DNA of 11,352 nt from a virus. Its lineage: Duplodnaviria; Heunggongvirae; Uroviricota; Caudoviricetes. Location of the stretch: IMG/VR virus record IMGVR_UViG_2585427742_000014. One strand, written 5' to 3'. The translations under genes were made by a program, and so were the position numbers. Below, piece by piece: positions 886-9,580 of the stretch. The notes under the pieces were generated by a model. The model searched no databases and was not told the DNA's origin. It saw only the letters and a list, made by a program, of their open reading frames with translations. Numbering within the stretch: position 1 is the first letter of the stretch; each line of letters starts with the position of its first letter.

Positions 886-920
886 TGTGCCCCCATCGCT
901 CTGATAGTCTGGTGTCGTCG

Positions 921-1100
921 GGTCCTTCCTGGAATTATGGCCCGTTACGGGGCGGCGACCTCGCGCGTTTTCACTATTTATGAAAATTTTTCGGGATCCA
1001 TGTCCGGTTTCTCTGCAAGTTAACCATATGAAAAATATAAAAACATGCTTTCCATGAACCGGACATGCGCAAAAAACAGACACTAAAACCGGACATCGAA
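921..1100 (+). other. cos-1: lambda-type cohesive-end site in plus orientation (cosQ-like flank, cosN 950-961 GGGCGGCGACCT, cosB-like region with three R-like elements and an AT-rich spacer)
   Basis: CGTTACG|GGGCGGCGACCT|CGCGCGTTTTCACTATTTATGAAAATTTTTCGG matches the phage lambda cos junction as I recall it (GGTTACG|GGGCGGCGACCT|CGCGGGTTTTCGCTATTTATGAAAATTTTCCGG). Downstream: ATGTCCGGTT at 1000-1009, AT-rich 1011-1050, AACCGGACAT at 1057-1066 and 1087-1096. Confidence 0.75.
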
Positions 1101-1164: not shown

Positions 1165-1599
1165 TTACTGTTCTGTATCGGCTGATTGCTCCATGCTGGC
1201 ACGGCGAACGCTTATGGCATGACGCCACCCAGCCAGAAAGCCAGCCATTTTATTTCGTGCCTTGCTCACATCTTCCGGTGAATAGCCGTAAATCTGCAAA
1301 CCTTCATCAAATCGATGTTCTGTTTCTTCACTGGAGTACTCGTCACGCTCAGATGAAAGCAGCCTGGCAAACATAATTTTTTCCAGCGCACTGGTTTCTA
1401 CGTGATATCTGATGGTCTCAAGACGGCTTTTACCTGAAGACCAAAGCAATGTATGCCCGATGTGATAACCGCCAGACTTTCCGCGATCCGCATTAAGATA
1501 CGGCATCCCCTGTTTGGTCCATGCGCGAATAGTGGTTCTGTTAACCTTGAAATGTTCAGCTATTTCCTGCTGACTTACAAAACAAGCTTTATCAATCAT
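1165..1599 (-). CDS. Nu1-like small-terminase DNA-binding protein with a divergent C-terminus; candidate packaging-redirection factor (Rpp-like) or island TerS
   Basis: N-terminus VSQQEIAEHFKVNRTTIRAWTKQGMPYL resembles the winged-HTH of lambda gpNu1 (KKQLADIFGASIRTIQNWQEQGMPVL, from memory). At 144 aa it is shorter than Nu1 and the C-terminal half is unrelated. A cos site lies ~90 bp upstream. Confidence 0.7.
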   Translation of the reverse strand: MIDKACFVSQQEIAEHFKVNRTTIRAWTKQGMPYLNADRGKSGGYHIGHTLLWSSGKSRLETIRYHVETSALEKIMFARLLSSERDEYSSEETEHRFDEGLQIYGYSPEDVSKARNKMAGFLAGWRHAISVRRASMEQSADTEQ

Positions 1600-1733
1600 A
1601 ATGTTACCTTAACTGCATGGTTAAATATTAATCAAGTGGTGGTGGTGTCACCTTCACGGAAAAACGTCATAAATAGCGAAAACCCGCGAGGTCGCCGCCC
1701 CGTAACGGGTCCATAATTCCAGGAAGGACCCGT
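1600..1733 (-). other. cos-2: lambda-type cos site in minus orientation (cosN at 1689-1700 as reverse complement), in the lambda-like position immediately upstream of the Nu1-like gene
   Basis: Minus strand reads ACGGGTCCTTCCTGGAATTATGGACCCGTTACG|GGGCGGCGACCT|CGCGGGTTTTCGCTATTTATGACGTTTTTCCGTGAAGG. The 22 nt after cosN are identical to lambda as recalled, and CGTTTTTCCGTG resembles lambda R3. Confidence 0.75.
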
Positions 1734-1755
1734 AAAAAAGCCGGATTTCTCCGGC
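1734..1755 (-). terminator. Rho-independent terminator for the capsid operon (GCCGGA-TTTC-TCCGGC stem-loop followed by T6 on the minus strand)
   Basis: Hairpin 1740-1755 and A6 at 1734-1739 (T6 on the minus strand), 7 nt past the stop of the 1762..2175 ORF. Confidence 0.6.
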
Positions 1756-2534: not shown

Positions 2535-3590
2535 TTAACCAATTTTGACGGTAACAAATTTGCGAATATCTGCCGGAACCGGCTGCGGTGCGCTGTGCGT
2601 CTGCACGTACTCAATCGCCGGATCGCCGTCCTCAATCCAGTTTTTCGGGTAAAACATGTTTTGCGTTGCGCCCGTTCTTACTGCGTCCTGATCCATAATC
2701 GCACCATAGGCCACCAGCCCTTTATTGTTGGTGTTGCCCAGAACCAGCAAATCAGGCTCAAGGAAATATTTTTCTGTGCCGTCGCTGTCAGTGTATTTGC
2801 CGGAATAGACGATAAGGGCAATATCGCCCAGATAGCCTTTAAAGCTCACCACTTCGCCCAGGTTTTTACAGGCCAGCTCTGCGGCGGACTCTGAACCACG
2901 GGAAAGATCGTACAGCTCACGGAATTTTTTAAAGCTGCGTAACGTTCGCCATACCTCAGCGCCCATAATCATGACGTTTGCGGGGCAACCAGCCTGATCA
3001 GCATAAAGCTCGATGTCATAGATTGGGTCGTGCATGTCTTTATCCTGCTCGGACCATTTTTTACCCTTGGCCTGCTCTATGATGCAGTTTTCCGGTATTT
3101 TCCAGTCGATTTCATAGCGTTCTATGCCTTCGCCCTCAATGATGTTTTTTCCGGTCGTTACCGCATTCACCGCCAGCCATTCCACGCGTGCCTTAATGGC
3201 GTTTATCTGGCGGCGCATGTTGCCAGTAATCAGGCGCATACGGCGATAGGTAGGGTCGTTAAGCTGTGCCGGATCTTCTCCAGCCATGCGCATGATGGTT
3301 TTCGTTGGATCGATTTCGTGCTTTGGCTTCATGTAGCCAGGTTTGATTGTGCTGGTTTCGTACCCTTTATCGCGCTGAACCTGGCTACCCACCATAGGCG
3401 AACAAAACGCCGACATGGTGACTTCTTCAATGTCCAGGGTATCCAGCATGATGTTTTGCGTGCTGAATGTCGCCACGTTCGGGAAAAACAGCGTGGTAAA
3501 CAGAGGGCTGAATTTAAAATCCGCAATATCCCCGCGATTCAGGTACATGAAAAGCTGGTTAGTGTTAAGTGCCGTTGCTTTGCCTGCCAT
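2535..3590 (-). CDS. Major capsid protein, lambda gpE family
   Basis: 351 aa; shared motifs with lambda gpE as recalled: DFKFSPLF / KFKFDPLF, PGYMKPKHEI / PGYVKPKHEV, DPTYRRMRLI / DPAYRRRRII, YPKNWIEDGDPAIEY / YPKNWVTTGDPAREF. GGGGG-type RBS 6 nt upstream. Confidence 0.9.
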   Translation of the reverse strand: MAGKATALNTNQLFMYLNRGDIADFKFSPLFTTLFFPNVATFSTQNIMLDTLDIEEVTMSAFCSPMVGSQVQRDKGYETSTIKPGYMKPKHEIDPTKTIMRMAGEDPAQLNDPTYRRMRLITGNMRRQINAIKARVEWLAVNAVTTGKNIIEGEGIERYEIDWKIPENCIIEQAKGKKWSEQDKDMHDPIYDIELYADQAGCPANVMIMGAEVWRTLRSFKKFRELYDLSRGSESAAELACKNLGEVVSFKGYLGDIALIVYSGKYTDSDGTEKYFLEPDLLVLGNTNNKGLVAYGAIMDQDAVRTGATQNMFYPKNWIEDGDPAIEYVQTHSAPQPVPADIRKFVTVKIG

Positions 3591-3796
3591 TATTCACCCC
3601 CATAATTTTTATGCATCCCAAGCGCCGCAAGTAAATAAGAGCGTACAAGTGAACCTATCGACGGCTCCGGCGTCATCAGCGGATCCAGTCCAGCCGCCAC
3701 GCCAGCCTCATAGTTTTTTTTGTGGCGCTGCTTGAGCACCTCCACGATTTCGGGGCTTATGTACACCGAAACACCGCCTTTTTTCTCTTCAGCCAT
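3590..3796 (-). CDS. Hypothetical small protein (68 aa), first gene of the capsid operon, translationally coupled to the capsid gene
   Basis: Stop overlaps the capsid ATG (TAATG); AGAGGAA-type RBS upstream. No family recognised. Confidence 0.5.
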   Translation of the reverse strand: MAEEKKGGVSVYISPEIVEVLKQRHKKNYEAGVAAGLDPLMTPEPSIGSLVRSYLLAALGMHKNYGGE

Positions 3797-3961
3797 AGTA
3801 AGAAATTCCTCTTCGACTTAAAAAATCATAACTGGATGTTCATCCAGCTCTGATTATAATCATGATTGCATTTTGTGCAATGATATTGAGTTGTGTTGCA
3901 AATTATGAAATGATGATCCCGATCATGTGTGTCAGTGCACCAAAAAGCCTCATATGCAAAA

Positions 3962-3998
3962 GCCCGATAAGCCACCTCTGACCTTATCGGGCTTTTTT
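3962..3998 (+). terminator. Terminator-like hairpin (GCCCGATAAG / CTTATCGGGC stem, 11-nt loop, T6 on the plus strand) in the capsid-operon upstream region
   Basis: 10-bp perfect stem at 3962-3971 / 3983-3992 followed by TTTTTT at 3993-3998. No plus-strand ORF lies upstream; only 4 U would follow on the minus strand. Confidence 0.5.
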
Positions 3999-4099
3999 AT
4001 CTGCCTGCAAAGATGTCGAACAAAAATTAACCACAACCATCATCTTTTTTGCATCAAAACAATTAAAAACAATAAATTACGCTCATGATGATGATGACG

Positions 4100-4173
4100 A
4101 TAAAATCACAAAAATGCGCTTTTTTCCGCGCCTCCCGCCCCGTGTTCAGCCCCCCCCCGCCAGGAGGACCCGT
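4100..4173 (-). other. Degenerate cos-like remnant (cosQ-like GGACCCGT flank plus ACGGGGCGG, no intact cosN)
   Basis: Minus strand reads CGGGTCCTCCTGGCGGGGGGGGGCTGAACACGGGGCGGGAGGCGCGGAAAAAAGCGCATTTTTGTGA, versus cos-2 CGGGTCCTTCCTGG...ACGGGGCGGCGACCTCGCGGGTTTTCGCTATTTATGA. Partial similarity only. Confidence 0.3.
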
Positions 4174-4195
4174 AAAAAAGCCGGATTGCTCCGGC
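4174..4195 (-). terminator. Rho-independent terminator for the SSB operon; near-identical copy of the 1734-1755 terminator
   Basis: GCCGGA-TTGC-TCCGGC at 4180-4195 plus A6 at 4174-4179 (T6 on the minus strand), 17 nt past the SSB stop. The flanking ~40 bp is shared with 1719-1760. Confidence 0.6.
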
Positions 4196-4211
4196 TTCTG
4201 TCACTCGTCGC

Positions 4212-4634
4212 TTAAAACGGTATGTTATCCCCGTACGGATCATCATTCCCCGCCTGTTGTTTTGCCCTGTTCAGCGCGTCAGTAGCCTGGCCCTGTTGAC
4301 CTTTTTTGCCGCCCAGTCGCGCCGTTCGCGCACTGATTACACTGTCTGCGATAACCTGCCAGCCCTGCCGCGTTTCTCCGTTCTGCCCAGTCCACTGGCT
4401 GATCTGCATGTTACCCGCCACGCTCAGGAGTTCACCCTTGCGGTGCCTTTCCAGTGCTTCGGCCTGTCTGCCAAATGCCAGGACGGATAACCACATCGTC
4501 GCCGTTCCGTCATCTGCCTGGCTGCACGGAAGGGGGACCGCCATACGCGCCAGCGTCATCGGTGTGCCCTTGCTGGTCTGTTTTACCTGCGGGTCGTCCA
4601 CCAGCCGCCCGTAAGCGGCTATCTGTGCTGTCAT
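4212..4634 (-). CDS. Single-stranded DNA-binding protein (SSB-like)
   Basis: 140 aa; an OB-fold-like pattern (GRLVDDPQ...TMWLSVLAFGRQAE...KGELLSVAGNMQISQWTGQNGETRQ) and an acidic C-terminal tip DDPYGDNIPF resembling the SSB DDDIPF tail. Confidence 0.75.
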   Translation of the reverse strand: MTAQIAAYGRLVDDPQVKQTSKGTPMTLARMAVPLPCSQADDGTATMWLSVLAFGRQAEALERHRKGELLSVAGNMQISQWTGQNGETRQGWQVIADSVISARTARLGGKKGQQGQATDALNRAKQQAGNDDPYGDNIPF

Positions 4635-4957: not shown

Positions 4958-5185
4958 TGTCTACCTTATCTACCTTAGTGGCCCTCATGCCAGTAATGGC
5001 GCGGCTTTCAGCGGGGTAGAGTGCTTTTATCCACTATCTACCCCGTGTCTACCTCCCTGTCTGACTCAGGTAAAATCAGGTAGAGAGGGTAGATAGTGGG
5101 TAGACAGTAAAAAAAAGCTATCTACCTAACTTAATGCACTGAATTAAATGTATTTTTCTTTACTCAGGTAGACAGGGTAGACAGC
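4958..5185. repeat. Iteron array with AT-rich segment; putative island replication origin just downstream of the primase gene
   Basis: At least 9 copies of GGTAGA(C/T/G)AG or its complement in both orientations: TCTACCTTA x2 tandem at 4960-4977, CTATCTACC 5035-5043, GTGTCTACC 5045-5053, GGTAGAG 5079-5085, GGGTAGATAG 5088-5097, GGGTAGACAG 5098-5107, GCTATCTACC 5117-5126, GGTAGACAG x2 tandem at 5167-5184. AT-rich stretch at 5107-5160. Confidence 0.7.
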
Positions 5186-5197
5186 AATTACAAAAAA

Positions 5198-6952
5198 TTA
5201 TAAAAACGCGTCGCACTCGTCTGTTGTTATTGCGTTAGTCTGCGTTACTCCCTTAACTTTCCGCGTAATATATTCATGTCCGTAAACTTTCGCGGCTGGC
5301 TTCATAGCCTTGCCAAAGTCATTTACGTTTAGCGGTTTGCTCCTGCCTGCGTACGCCATAAACGCCAGATAGACGCGGTAAAGGCTGTTTCTGGTCGTGT
5401 ACTTCACTGAATCGCCACCGCCGCCCATCATCAGGCCGCGTGCTTCCTCCAGAAAATTCAGGAACTGGCAAAACTCAATAACCGGATCCGTCTGTTGCTT
5501 TATTGCCAGTGCTTCATCACCGTCACGCTGTTCCAGTAGTAAAGCCCGTGCTTTCTCAGAGTCGGTAAAGTTCGCCAGCAATCGGCGGATAATGACAGGG
5601 ATTTCAGCCGCAATCTTTTCCGGTAGCTCCCTGTCTTTTTCGGCCTCACTGACGATATTGTCGAAACGGAAAATCACGCGACGACGTGCCACACCTCCGG
5701 CCCGTTCGGTGAATATCATCGGGTTGTTGTTGGTCGCCAGCACCACCGCCCTGATTACCGCCGTAAAACGCTTTTCATATTTCGGGTTAATTTCCACGGG
5801 GTCACCGCCCGTGATTTTCTTGATGCCCGTTCCTTCGCCTGTATATTTCGGCTGGTCAGCCAGGACGATAAGACGACTCCCGACAACCTGCGCACGTCCA
5901 CCAGCATCATCAAGCGATGTCATTTCAGCGCTTACCGTGTTCTGTTTCCCTGCCAGAAGGCTGGCTATGTGCGTGAATGTACTTTTACCGCTCCCGCCGT
6001 CTCCGGTGGCCTCAATAAACATCTGCCAGTCGTACCGGTTCGCCATAATCATGTACAGCGCGGCACATATACGCATCATCTTGCGCGGGTCTTTTCCGGC
6101 TGCGTGCTTAAGCCATTTATGAAAGTTTGGCGCGTTATCGCGGATGTTCTCCCCTGGTGCTGGTGGCGTGTACTCAATGCCGTTGTTCGTGGTGATCCAG
6201 TTCTCCGGCGTGTGCGGGGAAAATTCCCCCGTTTTCAGGTCAAGCGCACCATTGGCGAACGGCAGCAAATCGCCGGACGGCTCGCCCATTGGTTCGGCAA
6301 TAACTTTTAACGCTTCCACGGCGTTATTGATTACGCGCTTGCTGAAAGTGGCCCTGTGCTCTGAATAGATCGCCACCATTTCGCGGCTAAGTTCCATTGT
6401 GCTGACCGGACACCATACCCCGCCGCGCCATACGTGAACGATTTCACTTTCAGGATGTACGCAAACGCCATCAAAGCGATCGGCAAGCAGCTGCGCGCGC
6501 TCACTGTCCGCCATCTGCGAAAGTTGCGCCTTTTGCTTTACCGGAAGCTCAATGACCAGACCATCAGAAAGATTCTGGCGCTCACGGGCCAGATATTCGC
6601 GCCAGTTCTCCACCTTCTGACCGTGCATACCATCAGGGTAAAAATTTGCGTCCTGAATATCTGCCGCCGCCAGCTTCTGACCAATCTTTTTGGTCTCCAC
6701 TAAATCCAGTTCTCCGGCCTGGTACAGCCTTACGCGCTTTTTCCCATCCGGAACAATTTTCAGCGCATCAAGTTCGGCAAGCTGATTTGGCCCAAGCCAC
6801 ACAGGCGGCACATTATCGCCGGATGCGGGGCCGTCCTGCTCCTGCCACTGTTTTGCATGTGACCACGCATCACTACCCGCGAAAATAATTACCTCTGTGT
6901 CTTTGTGTTTTATTCCGCGTGGTTGTTTTTTTACGTTCGGTGCCAGTTTCAT
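5198..6952 (-). CDS. Primase-helicase (D5_N-like region plus SF3-type P-loop NTPase; phage/plasmid primase, P4 family C-terminal type)
   Basis: 584 aa; Walker A GDGGSGKST, preceded by a D5_N-like segment (FANGALDLKTGEFSPHTPENWITTN). Followed by the iteron origin. Confidence 0.85.
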   Translation of the reverse strand: MKLAPNVKKQPRGIKHKDTEVIIFAGSDAWSHAKQWQEQDGPASGDNVPPVWLGPNQLAELDALKIVPDGKKRVRLYQAGELDLVETKKIGQKLAAADIQDANFYPDGMHGQKVENWREYLARERQNLSDGLVIELPVKQKAQLSQMADSERAQLLADRFDGVCVHPESEIVHVWRGGVWCPVSTMELSREMVAIYSEHRATFSKRVINNAVEALKVIAEPMGEPSGDLLPFANGALDLKTGEFSPHTPENWITTNNGIEYTPPAPGENIRDNAPNFHKWLKHAAGKDPRKMMRICAALYMIMANRYDWQMFIEATGDGGSGKSTFTHIASLLAGKQNTVSAEMTSLDDAGGRAQVVGSRLIVLADQPKYTGEGTGIKKITGGDPVEINPKYEKRFTAVIRAVVLATNNNPMIFTERAGGVARRRVIFRFDNIVSEAEKDRELPEKIAAEIPVIIRRLLANFTDSEKARALLLEQRDGDEALAIKQQTDPVIEFCQFLNFLEEARGLMMGGGGDSVKYTTRNSLYRVYLAFMAYAGRSKPLNVNDFGKAMKPAAKVYGHEYITRKVKGVTQTNAITTDECDAFL

Positions 6953-7924: not shown

Positions 7925-8382
7925 AAGCCTACCCCCTGACGAATACGGGCGACAAAAATCAGATGTGCGTGCGGCAGCTGTGCACGTGCTTCGCGCTCAG
8001 TGGCAGCGGTAACGGTGAATATTGCAATGCTGTCTGTCAGGCACTGCATAAAGCGCCAGACAAAATAAGGGCGTGCGGATACAGCCATGTGAAAGGCTCC
8101 CAGATGAATTTTAAGGAGTCTCGCTACTACGCTGTCAAACATGGTGGCGAGACGTAACAGGGTTGACAGACTGGTCATCTGGAAACCAGCGAGCACAAAG
8201 GCTCCCCCGTTACGCCCCGCCATAATGCGGGTATGGGTAGGTTTACGGACACAAAAAAACCGCTTATCGGATGTGGGCGGCTGTCCGCCAGATGTATTCA
8301 GGCTGTCAAACCCGGTCGCCATGTGGGCGACGGGGGAAGCATACAGCCCCGTGATAATTTTTTGCAAGCGGTTTTTACGCAT
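7921..8382 (-). CDS. Small protein, paralog 1, with a C-terminal motif shared with 8375..8578 (Icd-like/Ash-like small-protein type; start uncertain, alternative ATG at 8088)
   Basis: C-terminus YFVWRF...TAATEREARAQLPHAHLIFVARIRQG parallels the downstream paralog. The ATG at 8382 overlaps the upstream stop (ATGCGTAA) with AGGGG 7 nt upstream; the alternative ATG at 8088 has GGAG 8 nt upstream. Confidence 0.45.
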   Translation of the reverse strand: MRKNRLQKIITGLYASPVAHMATGFDSLNTSGGQPPTSDKRFFCVRKPTHTRIMAGRNGGAFVLAGFQMTSLSTLLRLATMFDSVVARLLKIHLGAFHMAVSARPYFVWRFMQCLTDSIAIFTVTAATEREARAQLPHAHLIFVARIRQGVGL

Positions 8383-8578
8383 GATATGACCCCTGGCGAA
8401 TACGGGCAGCGAATACCATCACGCAGCCAGCCGGAGATTGCTGACGCGCTTCCTGTTCGCTGGTGGCCTCGATGGTAATCACGCGCGGTTGTGCCGTGCT
8501 CAGGGCGATAAAACGCCAGATGTATTTATTCAGGTTGTACGAGTCCCGCCCTTGCGGGTGTCTGGTATAATTTCTCAT
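8375..8578 (-). CDS. Small protein, paralog 2 (67 aa), Icd-like/Ash-like type
   Basis: MRNYTRHPQGRDSYNLNKYIWRF...EATSEQEARQQSPAGCVMVFAARIRQG; GAGG 5 nt upstream of the ATG at 8578. This is the 3' end of the otherwise implausible 382-aa ORF. Family assignment is from memory and unverified. Confidence 0.5.
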   Translation of the reverse strand: MRNYTRHPQGRDSYNLNKYIWRFIALSTAQPRVITIEATSEQEARQQSPAGCVMVFAARIRQGSYHA

Positions 8579-8650
8579 AGCTACCTCGATACTTTCGCTA
8601 TCGTTGGTGGTTAGAAGCCCTGCATGTGTTCCAGCACTGCGGGGCTTTGC

Positions 8651-8755
8651 TGTACATACACCACAATCATTGGTGTGTGTACAGATTAAATTTAAGTGCG
8701 CTACAGTGTCAAGTGTTTTATTTACACACCTTTTGGTGTAATGTATGCACACCTC
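8651..8755. promoter_or_regulatory. Divergent promoter/operator region with inverted repeats built on CACACC / GGTGTG
   Basis: GTACATACACCA (8652-8663) and TGGTGTGTGTAC (8671-8682) form a 12-bp inverted repeat with one mismatch and a 7-bp spacer; further ACACACC / GGTGT / CACACC copies at 8724-8753. Lies between divergent genes starting at 8578 (minus) and 8775 (plus). Confidence 0.45.
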
Positions 8756-8774
8756 AAAATAACCGGACATTCTG

Positions 8775-9080
8775 ATGGCAACAGGAAATATCAACAGCAG
8801 ATCGCAAATGAAAAATATCCGCTTCCCCCATGATGTAATCGAGGAAATGGAAAATTCGAAAACGGAAGGGGAAACAATAGCCGCTTTCGTGATTACAGCC
8901 GTTCGCGGTGAGATCGCCCGCCGCCAGGCAGAAGGAAGCGGAGAAAATCCCCTGGTTTCTTCGCTCGATGCACTGGCGCAGGTGGAAAAAATCGGAGTCA
9001 AAGCAGCCGAGGAGATCGGGCAACTCATCACCGTCGCGCGTGAAGAACTCCAGCGTCGCAAGGCCAAAGAGCAGGAGTGA
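8775..9080 (+). CDS. Ribbon-helix-helix-like DNA-binding protein (101 aa; start uncertain)
   Basis: KNIRFPHDVIEEMENSKTEGETIAAFVITAVRGEIARR fits a beta-strand/helix/helix RHH pattern; non-repetitive charged composition. Weak SD at 8775. Confidence 0.55.
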   Translation: MATGNINSRSQMKNIRFPHDVIEEMENSKTEGETIAAFVITAVRGEIARRQAEGSGENPLVSSLDALAQVEKIGVKAAEEIGQLITVAREELQRRKAKEQE

Positions 9081-9137
9081 CCATCACCAGCGCCGTGGTG
9101 TAAGGTATTACGGCGCATTGCTATGCAGGACAACACA

Positions 9138-9311
9138 ATGACCGATAAAGAATTGACCAAAACATTATCACCGGCACGGAAAAGACGGCGCAGAAAGATA
9201 GAGCATGAATCAGAAAGATTCGCGCCATGTGCTTTTGCCCTTGAGCAATTCCTTAAAGAGTACAGGGAAAAGCGCTCATTGCAGGTATGGCAACGAACTG
9301 AACCAGACTGA
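9138..9311 (+). CDS. Small basic protein (57 aa from the ATG at 9138; the ORF starts at 9123)
   Basis: AGGA 7 nt upstream of the ATG at 9138; contains ARKRRRRK; followed by a strong terminator. Confidence 0.4.
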   Translation: MTDKELTKTLSPARKRRRRKIEHESERFAPCAFALEQFLKEYREKRSLQVWQRTEPD

Positions 9312-9406
9312 TTGCATTGCCCACCAGCCTGATAACGGCTATCATCCCCGTGCTTATGTTTGGGATCACACACACAAACGGCGCAGCGGGTTATCTGTTC
9401 AGAAAG

Positions 9407-9434
9407 GCGGCTCCATTTCGGGGCCGCTTTTTTT
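9407..9434 (+). terminator. Rho-independent terminator of the plus-strand RHH operon
   Basis: 8-bp stem GCGGCTCC / GGGGCCGC (one G-U pair), loop ATTTC, followed by T7 at 9428-9434. Confidence 0.7.
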
Positions 9435-9580
9435 ATACCTGAAAAACCCCAATTTTGTTGTTTTTCAGTTTCACCAGGGCGAACGAATCCCCGCCCACGT
9501 TCTGGCGTATATTCAATCTTCATGGTTATAGCTCTGTGTTCAGATGATTGATGTGTGGCGGCTGCGTGCCGCCAGCGTGA

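Follow-up and report, generated by a model that had tools for sequence, protein, structure and literature searches.

The window analysed here, all 11,352 bp of IMG/VR record IMGVR_UViG_2585427742_000014, is a complete satellite of E. coli, namely a cos-type, Rpp-encoding phage-inducible chromosomal island (PICI) of the EcCICFT073 kind. Between its replication operon, which ends with the SSB gene (4212..4634, minus strand; Pfam SSB, E 4.9e-15; present in the open reading frame (ORF) list and the RefSeq annotation), and its capsid operon lies the stretch 4100–4200, described in a first-pass annotation as a degenerate, cos-like remnant. To judge by its bases, this stretch belongs to a complete cos site, the third in this island, of which it forms the upstream part; the site, here termed cos3, extends from about 4178 to 4009 on the minus strand. 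The putative site is located between two hairpins, directly past the intrinsic terminator of the primase-SSB operon. Its components, in order, are the cosQ heptamer GGGTCCT, a spacer of 21 nt, a cosN-equivalent (ACG|GGGCGGGAGG..), a segment with A/T tracts and a cosB of about 115 bp.

The cosQ heptamer of cos3 (4165..4171, minus strand) is identical to that of lambda (bp 48473–48479 of NC_001416), the element required for packaging termination (PMC4856287). Its first G is situated 31 nt before ACG|GGG, compared to 30 nt in lambda, whose record, read across its ends, runs ...CACTTTAC-GGGTCCT-TTCCGGTGATCCGACAGGTTACG|GGGCGGCGACCT. The spacer between cosQ and cosN (4144..4164, minus strand, CCTGGCGGGGGGGGGCTGAAC) has the length found in phages and contains a G9/C9 run at 4150–4158, which is restricted to this island lineage (3 of the 17 related contigs), while other islands and phages display GGGGTGGGCC of the same length at this position. 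The G9 tract is possibly prone to slippage, which could alter the distance between cosQ and cosN. In the cosN-equivalent (4126..4143, minus strand, ACG|GGGCGGGAGG(CG)|CGG, the bars marking putative nick positions), the left flank and half-site are those of lambda (ACGGGGCGG) and the right flank CGCGG is conserved in an alignment of 13–17 sites. The centre is of a second kind, referred to here as type 2, which reads GGGCGGGCGGCG in Stx2 phages and GGGCGGGAGCG.. in mEp460 and PhiR40_1. Since cos3 holds GGGCGGGAGGCG in place of the 12-nt cohesive-end sequence GGGCGGCGACCT of lambda, it falls outside the lambda cosN type represented by lambda, phi80 and the CFT073 phage, the cos of the CFT073 icd prophage serving as lambda-type comparator. 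Five of the 12 cohesive-end positions differ between lambda and cos3, and the conserved flanks are perhaps only 10 nt apart in the latter. The remaining layout is that of the lambda family, with cosQ about 30 nt before the nick region, the flanks and half-sites ACG|GGGCGG and CGCGG, A/T tracts past cosN and a repeat element at the R3 position (PMC9026076, PMC4856287). Downstream of the cosN-equivalent lie an I2-like A/T-tract segment and then cosB (together 4009..4125, minus strand). The cosB carries TCATCATCATCAT at about +45 to +60, which is the R3-equivalent position, and GTTCGACATC near its distal end; it is unrelated to the R3-I1-R2-R1 array of lambda, and its cognate small terminase subunit (TerS) belongs to a different family.

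Comparison with phage genomes by BLAST revealed that positions 4178–4009 are 87–90% identical over 169–170 bp to nine records of Stx1- and Stx2-converting phages (E 2e-56), 83–84% identical to 1720a-02 and CP-1639, and about 76% identical to mEp460. In Stx2_112808 the matching segment lies between the Rz endopeptidase gene and terS. Within IMG/VR, the type-2 core is found between Rz and a DUF1441 terS in 42 contigs and next to one of these flanks in six more, and in these 48 phage contexts cosN occurs as a variant with C in its centre. The large terminase subunit (TerL) of the type-2 phages combines GpA_ATPase and GpA_nuclease domains, and their TerS is of the Pfam family DUF1441, not Phage_Nu1. 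The only hint of cohesive ends at this position comes from LR595868, a record of an mEp460-like phage that is linearised 2 nt upstream of the ACG of the cosN-equivalent. Considered separately, the cosQ-cosN core of cos3 is 91% identical to Stx2_112808 and 1720a-02 but only 63–70% identical to the cores of lambda-type phages, and its cosB is 92% identical to that of Stx2_112808, with no more than 73% identity to other type-2 phages and 61% or less to the remaining cosB sequences of the island. The similarity hence covers cosQ, cosN and the entire TerS-binding region.

The same order of sub-elements is displayed by the cos regions of Stx2_112808 (LC567830), VT1-Sakai (AP000400), 1720a-02 (KF030445) and mEp460 (JQ182728), and their identity to cos3 is 87–92% over the stretch that starts at the T-run preceding cosQ and ends about 60 nt short of the phage terS start. 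Differences include one base in the cosN centre, the G9 run of the spacer and the surroundings: upstream of cosQ, the phages have an AT-rich palindrome, GATAACCATTATC, and a T-run, in contrast to the GC-rich operon terminator of the island, and downstream the phage cos is followed by terS and terL, whereas cos3 is followed by a hairpin and the capsid operon. cos3 thus reads as a near-copy of the cos region that a second lambdoid lineage carries between Rz and terS; this lineage includes the Stx1- and Stx2-converting phages, 1720a-02 and, more distantly, mEp460. Very probably, cos3 is homologous to cos sites of the phage type and did not arise by decay of a lambda cos. As the first-pass annotation had reported, the minus strand at 4129–4143 reads ACGGGGCGGGAGGCG, and the relation of 4100–4173 to cos sites holds. 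Degenerate, however, is not an apt description, since the deviating bases are those of another phage cos type; nor is remnant, as the homology extends over about 170 bp and through the whole cosB instead of being limited to the cosN flank.

The upstream border of cos3 belongs to a duplicated block. On the minus strand, the 31-nt sequence GCCGGAG(A/C)AATCCGGC-T6-ACGGGTCCT is present at 1755–1725 and 4195–4165 (97% identity by the repeat finder, 1725–1755 versus 4165–4195). The repeat that had been noticed at 1720–1755 (CAGGAAGGACCCGTAAAAAAGCCGGATTTCTCCGGC) and 4161–4195 (CAGGAGGACCCGTAAAAAAGCCGGATTGCTCCGGC) is found exactly as placed: strict local alignment yields a single block of 44 columns, 1718–1761 versus 4159–4202, with two mismatches and two one-base gaps, and the pattern GCCGGAGMAATCCGGCTTTTTTACGGGTCCT matches twice in the window and in none of 200 dinucleotide-preserving shuffles, even with three mismatches allowed. 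Likewise as described, each copy is located just downstream of a minus-strand operon, behind the end of the SSB ORF at 4212 and of a 137-aa ORF at 1762, and the copy at 1720–1755 runs into an intact lambda cosN (AGGTCGCCGCCC, 1689–1700). A duplicated module of terminator and cos flank is indeed present, the flank being cosQ. In the shared block, the hairpin of an intrinsic terminator is followed by GGGTCCT, the packaging-termination element of lambda. The likeness of the two copies has two causes: the operon terminator hairpins are paralogous, and each is followed by T6-ACGGGTCCT, which holds the cosQ element common to every lambda-family cos.

Both hairpins look like intrinsic terminators, each with a GC-rich stem-loop and a U tract past a co-oriented stop codon. 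The terminator of the SSB operon, T1 (4174..4195, minus strand), starts 16 nt past the end of the SSB ORF with hairpin GCCGGAGCAATCCGGC (4195–4180), the stem of which is lengthened by flanking pairs, and ends in U6 (4179–4174); its fold has an energy of −23.3 kcal/mol (z −3.6), and none of 200 shuffles is as stable. T2, the terminator of the capsid operon (1734..1755, minus strand), starts 6 nt past the 137-aa ORF with hairpin GCCGGAGAAATCCGGC (1755–1740) and U6 (1739–1734) and folds with −18.3 kcal/mol (z −2.4). A simple consensus scan of the window listed neither hairpin, so the assignment as terminators rests on RNA folding; an Rfam search of 3700–4300 gave nothing near gathering score and hence no sign of a known RNA gene. 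The two hairpins differ by one loop base, GCAA in T1 and GAAA in T2, and this difference is specific for the position: the GCAA loop occurs at the same junction, after the replication module, in L005, L058, EcCICFT073 and IMG/VR islands, and the GAAA loop is kept after the E-type capsid module in L005 and EcCICFT073. Accordingly, duplication of the hairpin is older than the divergence of these islands.

Beyond the terminator block, the heptamer GGGTCCT occurs three times in the window (920, 1731 and 4171), each time 30–31 nt before ACG|GGGCG, and the composite GGGTCCT-N20-26-ACGGGGCG is found at exactly these three places and in none of 200 shuffles. Pairwise alignment, which the first-pass annotation had proposed as a check, gave a mixed outcome. 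The unanchored local alignment of 4080–4158 with the lambda-type cos of the island reached a score of 10, equalled in 292 of 2000 shuffles, and in another unanchored comparison of the cos-like part with the lambda-type cos sites of the island 865 of 2000 shuffles attained the score; on that test alone, the cos-like part was no better than chance, an outcome that the first-pass annotation had named as refuting its proposal. The comparison with phages reversed this outcome, and because of the three composites, absent from shuffles, and the 87–90% identity to phage cos, the cos-likeness of 4100–4173 is considered real.

On the capsid side, the cos3 cassette is bordered by a second hairpin (3951..4003, minus strand), detected by the inverted-repeat finder, which has a 13-bp stem with A6 on the 5′ side and U4 on the 3′ side and folds with −25.6 kcal/mol (z −4.2). 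It resembles a bidirectional terminator and, together with the SSB terminator, may enclose cos3 in a non-transcribed pocket. Further downstream, a near-consensus promoter, TTGCAC-N16-TATAAT (3880–3853, minus strand), is followed by a hairpin (3849–3830, −13.4 kcal/mol) with U6, just ahead of the ribosome-binding site of the first gene of the capsid operon (68 aa). This arrangement, 95% conserved in EcCICFT073, looks like a promoter plus terminator that an antiterminator of the helper could read through, and its promoter was not listed by the consensus scan.

The two other cos sites of the island flank rpp and are of the lambda type. The site upstream of rpp (1600..1731, minus strand), taken to be the published functional cos1, comprises cosQ (1731–1725), the cosN 12-mer GGGCGGCGACCT (1700–1689) and an island-specific cosB of Rpp type (about 1688–1600). 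The ATG of rpp (1599) is bp 102 from the first cohesive-end base, and bp 102 is also where the PICI-C rpp gene has been reported to start (Murialdo & Feiss, PMC9026076). Phage similarity of this site is confined to the segment from cosQ to about +35 to +45, and its cosB reaches no more than 61% identity to any cosB of phages, a result in line with the published Rpp-specific nature of this cos. Within this cosB (1600–1660, minus strand), CACCACCACCAC is present at about +50 to +65 from the cohesive end, the R3 position, and resembles the motifs CACCATCACCACCA and CATCACCAC, which the cosB of 1720a-02 and mEp460 have at that position, despite the dissimilarity of Rpp and DUF1441 TerS. The inverted site downstream of rpp (918..1096, plus strand), at the position of the published cos2, contains cosQ (920–926), the cosN 12-mer (950–961) and a cosB of phage type, in which CCGGACAT is repeated at about 1000, 1059 and 1088. 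A 79-bp inverted repeat links it to 1654–1732. Over 179 bp it is 93% identical to the Rz-Nu1 intergenic cos of phages PhiR12_1 to PhiR12_5, with 98% identity in cosB, and it is a full copy of a phage cos that extends beyond cosQ and cosN. Both sites are 95–100% identical to the two cos sites of EcCICFT073. Compared with these, cos3 shares the satellite family and gene order, the lambda-like cosQ and the cosQ-cosN spacing, but differs by its non-lambda cosN centre and by a cosB of the DUF1441-TerS phage lineage in place of an Rpp-specific one (Fillol-Salom et al. 2018, PMC6092414; 2019, PMC6739421; PMC9026076). Taken together, the island possesses three cos sites that have one core in common but each a different cosB; two of these cosB are near-copies of phage cosB.

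Rpp itself (redirecting phage packaging protein; 144 aa, 1165..1599, minus strand) matches RppC of PDB 6HLK with E 4.5e-31 and is 30% identical to the DNA-binding domain of lambda Nu1 (E 2e-6), and a comparison with DUF1441 TerS found no similarity. Redirection by Rpp is therefore unlikely for type-2 helpers, for which a native cosB would be needed, and the idea that Rpp also redirects helpers with DUF1441 TerS was dropped on the same ground.

The chromosome of E. coli strain 300033 contains the window with 100% identity; there, the island is inserted in tqsA and has a tyrosine integrase at one end. All genes are located on the minus strand, in the order integrase, small helix-turn-helix (HTH) regulator, Icd-like genes, DUF4222, D5-type primase (5198–6952, by protein-domain match), 92-aa gene and SSB, followed by the 68-aa gene, a lambda-E-type major capsid protein (2535–3590) and a lambda-D-type decoration protein (2188–2523), both assigned by homology to their lambda counterparts, the 137-aa gene (in the ORF list, ending at 1762), the 144-aa HTH protein Rpp and a 93-aa gene. 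EcCICFT073 (NC_004431, 1377930–1388654) has the same gene order and is 94–100% identical from the capsid gene through the 93-aa gene. Characteristic of this PICI type, an integrase, an AlpA-like HTH protein, primase and origin, Rpp, E and D capsid homologues, two lambda-type cos sites flanking rpp, a size of about 11 kb and a chromosomal att site are all found. For EcCICFT073, previous reports describe the capsid homologue c1499, the decoration homologue c1500, two lambda-like cos sites and an Rpp which forms a heterodimer with the Nu1-type TerS of the helper and redirects packaging to the cosB of the island (PMC6092414, PMC6739421, PMC9026076); its DNA is packaged in phage-sized heads (PMC6092414). 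Directly past the 3′ end of the primase gene, the position to which PICI replication origins have been mapped (PMC6092414), the region 5028–5184 contains TCAGGTAGAGAGGGTAGATAG as a direct repeat (5076 and 5164) and an inverted repeat of 16 nt (5028–5043 and 5087–5102). The regulatory region looks rearranged relative to EcCICFT073: at 8375–9523 (L001 12375–13523), RefSeq has three Icd-like fragments, one a pseudogene, that overlap an opposite-strand YlcI/YnfO gene.

Whether an island of this kind contains cos3 varies. In EcCICFT073, the same hairpin follows the SSB-PerC genes, then GCGCCC and directly the second hairpin (window 4003–3951), so that the cassette of about 165 bp is absent; this explains why only two cos sites have been reported for the prototype. 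Since EcCICFT073 lacks cos3, the site is dispensable for expression of the capsid operon, and a role as necessary control element of that operon was rejected, as EcCICFT073 retains the downstream promoter-like region at 95% identity. A search of 5426 complete E. coli genomes found cos3, with at least 95% identity, in about 156, including Nissle 1917, ATCC 25922, IHE3034, UM146 and NCTC86. About 433 genomes show the CFT073 kind of junction, without the cassette. The microhomology TTTGC at the cassette boundaries is too weak to tell deletion from insertion. In species-representative genomes, neither the hairpin-plus-cosQ pattern nor T6-cosQ-N-cosN gave a match, and this collection therefore permits no statement on other species.

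The exact 23-mer of the cosN-equivalent is found in 17 IMG/VR contigs (16 of 5.8–14.6 kb and a 2.3-kb piece of a 9.3-kb contig), all of them satellite-like in gene content and with cos3 at the junction of SSB and the 68-aa gene. These contigs are mosaics: they differ in their integrase, have either primase or RepA for replication, and encode Rpp, a Nu1-type TerS or neither for packaging. Other islands have a cos of another sub-type at the junction of SSB and capsid module, with different types of phage cosB; L005, for example, has a variant cosN there. Two islands with a ClpP-capsid fusion contain no lambda-type cos. The first, L006, has two direct type-2 sites (2466–2560 and 5000–5190) whose cosB match different phages, 1720a-02 at 89% and Stx2_112808 at 83%. 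The second, L007, has two direct mEp460-like sites (5045–5200 and 8395–8600) and encodes its own DUF1441 TerS next to the second. The types of cos are shuffled among islands with differing replication and capsid modules. The census of architectures in IMG/VR is biased by the search patterns and shows only that states with and without cos3 both exist. On two further contigs, L120 and L145, island genes for RepA, SSB, capsid and the 93-aa protein stand directly beside phage Rz-cos-terS, a layout that points to satellites lying within a type-2 prophage, or next to one, close to its cos.

The best explanation, which we regard as rather probable, is that cos3 is a phage-type cos serving as an Rpp-independent packaging site for a second lineage of helpers. 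On replicating island concatemers, the TerS of a helper from the DUF1441-TerS lineage would recognise in cos3 the cosB sequence of its own phage, and the gpA-type TerL of this helper would nick the cosN-equivalent. Packaging would then run towards the capsid genes and end at a later cosQ and cosN. Four island units amount to 45.4 kb, which would fit the 42.9–47.3 kb of type-2 phage genomes (stand-alone records). In this way, cos3 would add a second class of helpers to the Nu1-type helpers exploited via Rpp at a lambda-type cos. TerL nucleases have low sequence specificity and depend on anchoring by TerS at cosB (PMC9026076), and cloned cos sites are sufficient for plasmid transfer by lambda and phi80 (PMC6092414, PMC6739421). 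Precedents for copied cos exist in the same family, namely the PhiR12-type cos at 918–1096, the type-2 sites of L006 and the type-2 cos of L007 with its DUF1441 TerS; since L006 has type-2 cos only, satellites of this family must be able to use them. The proposed mechanism equals the direct mimicry of the helper's packaging site in SaPIbov5-type cos satellites, which carry the cos of the helper phage and do not depend on a TerS encoded by themselves (cited in PMC6092414, PMC5052747), although these belong to another bacterial phylum and have an unrelated cos, and in the present island the copied site would stand beside an Rpp-redirected cos that serves another class of helpers.

Several observations weigh against this role. 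A second type-2 cos is present in 6 of the 60 best cos3-bearing genomes, close to background, so that no signal of co-residence with type-2 prophages was obtained, a comparison confounded by clonality. The listed cos3 islands stem mostly from human clinical or extraintestinal and commensal strains, whereas among phages the best matches come from Stx-converting phages and, as prophage-type matches, from O157 and O111 strains. The exact cosN centre, with A at position 8, is seen only in satellite-like contigs; the closest phages have C, while mEp460 and PhiR40_1 do have A. The cosQ heptamer carries a substitution in cos3 of 3 of 16 related islands, and two substitutions in the spacer created the G9 run in the lineage of this island. 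These changes are compatible with relaxed constraint, and the cos3-bearing islands are too alike for a test of purifying selection. Moreover, the prototype EcCICFT073 was transferred without cos3, and the literature searched contained no documentation of the cohesive ends of type-2 phages. Accounting for these points, the chances that cos3 is currently used for packaging appear evenly balanced.

Among the other explanations, the main rival is that cos3 is a neutral passenger or recombination scar, a genuine phage-derived cos acquired by recombination with a type-2 phage or satellite, which this island has ceased to use or never used and which persists owing to its recent arrival. The presence/absence polymorphism of the cassette, missing in EcCICFT073 and at the approximately 433 cassette-less junctions, accords with such a history, as do the lack of co-residence with type-2 prophages, the substitutions in cosQ (3 of 16 relatives) and spacer, and the clear shuffling of differing cos cassettes among islands. 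A mere passenger would, however, hardly explain that all sub-elements of cos3 (cosQ, spacing, cosN flanks and the 115-bp cosB) are intact and 90–92% phage-like, that a cos recurs at the same junction in islands with different replication and capsid modules and with different phage cosB, or that islands such as L006 have type-2 sites only. On balance, an idle passenger seems unlikely, though it deserves serious weight. Less probable still is that the site persists as portable homology, with the terminator and the cosQ-cosN core acting as a conserved junction for module exchange between satellites and phages. Such a role is close to the modular recombination junction proposed in the first-pass annotation, and part of that proposal stood: the boundary between replication and capsid modules recurs in many mosaic islands, with the cassette present or absent between two conserved hairpins. 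Hairpin, T6 and cosQ likewise recur at the replication-capsid and capsid-packaging boundaries, the hairpin loops are position-specific, and no segment varies more than the rpp/terS cassette, which is framed by two lambda-type cos cores in inverted orientation. The breakpoints between close relatives, however, map to the 68-aa gene, to SSB or the sequence upstream of it, and to the surroundings of the rpp/terS cassette, and none is situated inside cos3. In addition, portable homology accounts for the movement of the site but not for retention of a full 115-bp phage cosB, and it is complementary to a packaging function rather than an alternative.

Two simpler explanations find even less room. 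That cos3 is a decayed duplicate of the island's own lambda-type cos is suggested by the terminator and cosQ block held in common with 1720–1755 and by ACGGGGCGG, which is shared in register. Against this, the core stands at 91% identity to type-2 phages versus 63–70% to lambda-type cores, the cosB at 92% to Stx2_112808 versus at most 61% to the other cosB of the island, and the supposedly degenerate bases are the type-2 bases of phages. With type-2 phages as closest relatives, both by BLAST and by site-by-site identities, decay from a resident paralogue is considered refuted and very improbable. Pure coincidence, in which two terminators are alike and the cos-like part is fortuitous, would agree with the non-significant unanchored alignment (292 of 2000 shuffles), yet it is refuted by the three composites of three against none in 200 shuffles and by the matches to phage cos regions at E 2e-56, and is scarcely credible. 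The packaging site for a second helper lineage remains the preferred explanation of cos3.

The island type, the two lambda-type cos sites and Rpp were already known; new is the third cos, derived from another phage lineage. In the literature searched on EcCICFT073, PICI, cos sites and cosQ, of which the coverage was partial, neither a third cos of another lineage nor several cos sites with different phage-copied cosB was mentioned. By extension, satellites of this family may carry an array of cos with one core cut by gpA-type TerL, each member provided with a cosB of different terminase specificity; in the present island these would be the Rpp-redirected site for Nu1 helpers such as lambda and phi80, a native PhiR12-type Nu1 site and a native DUF1441-TerS site. 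This extension is put forward tentatively, as somewhat less than an even prospect. If it is true, one 11-kb island could be packaged by at least three helper lineages, cos cassettes would be shuffled determinants of helper range, and Stx phages could mobilise islands of extraintestinal and probiotic strains, for example Nissle 1917.

The published model for these satellites of E. coli comprises two lambda-type cos and an Rpp that redirects Nu1-type TerS. The role of cos3 is directly testable by the plasmid-transfer assay already used for cos1 and cos2, and the site is a design consideration for engineered PICI or cosmid delivery vehicles. If cos3 is functional, interchangeable cos cassettes would also set helper range, Rpp-independent piracy would coexist with Rpp, and Stx-converting and related phages would become candidate helpers for islands in about 3% of complete E. 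coli genomes.

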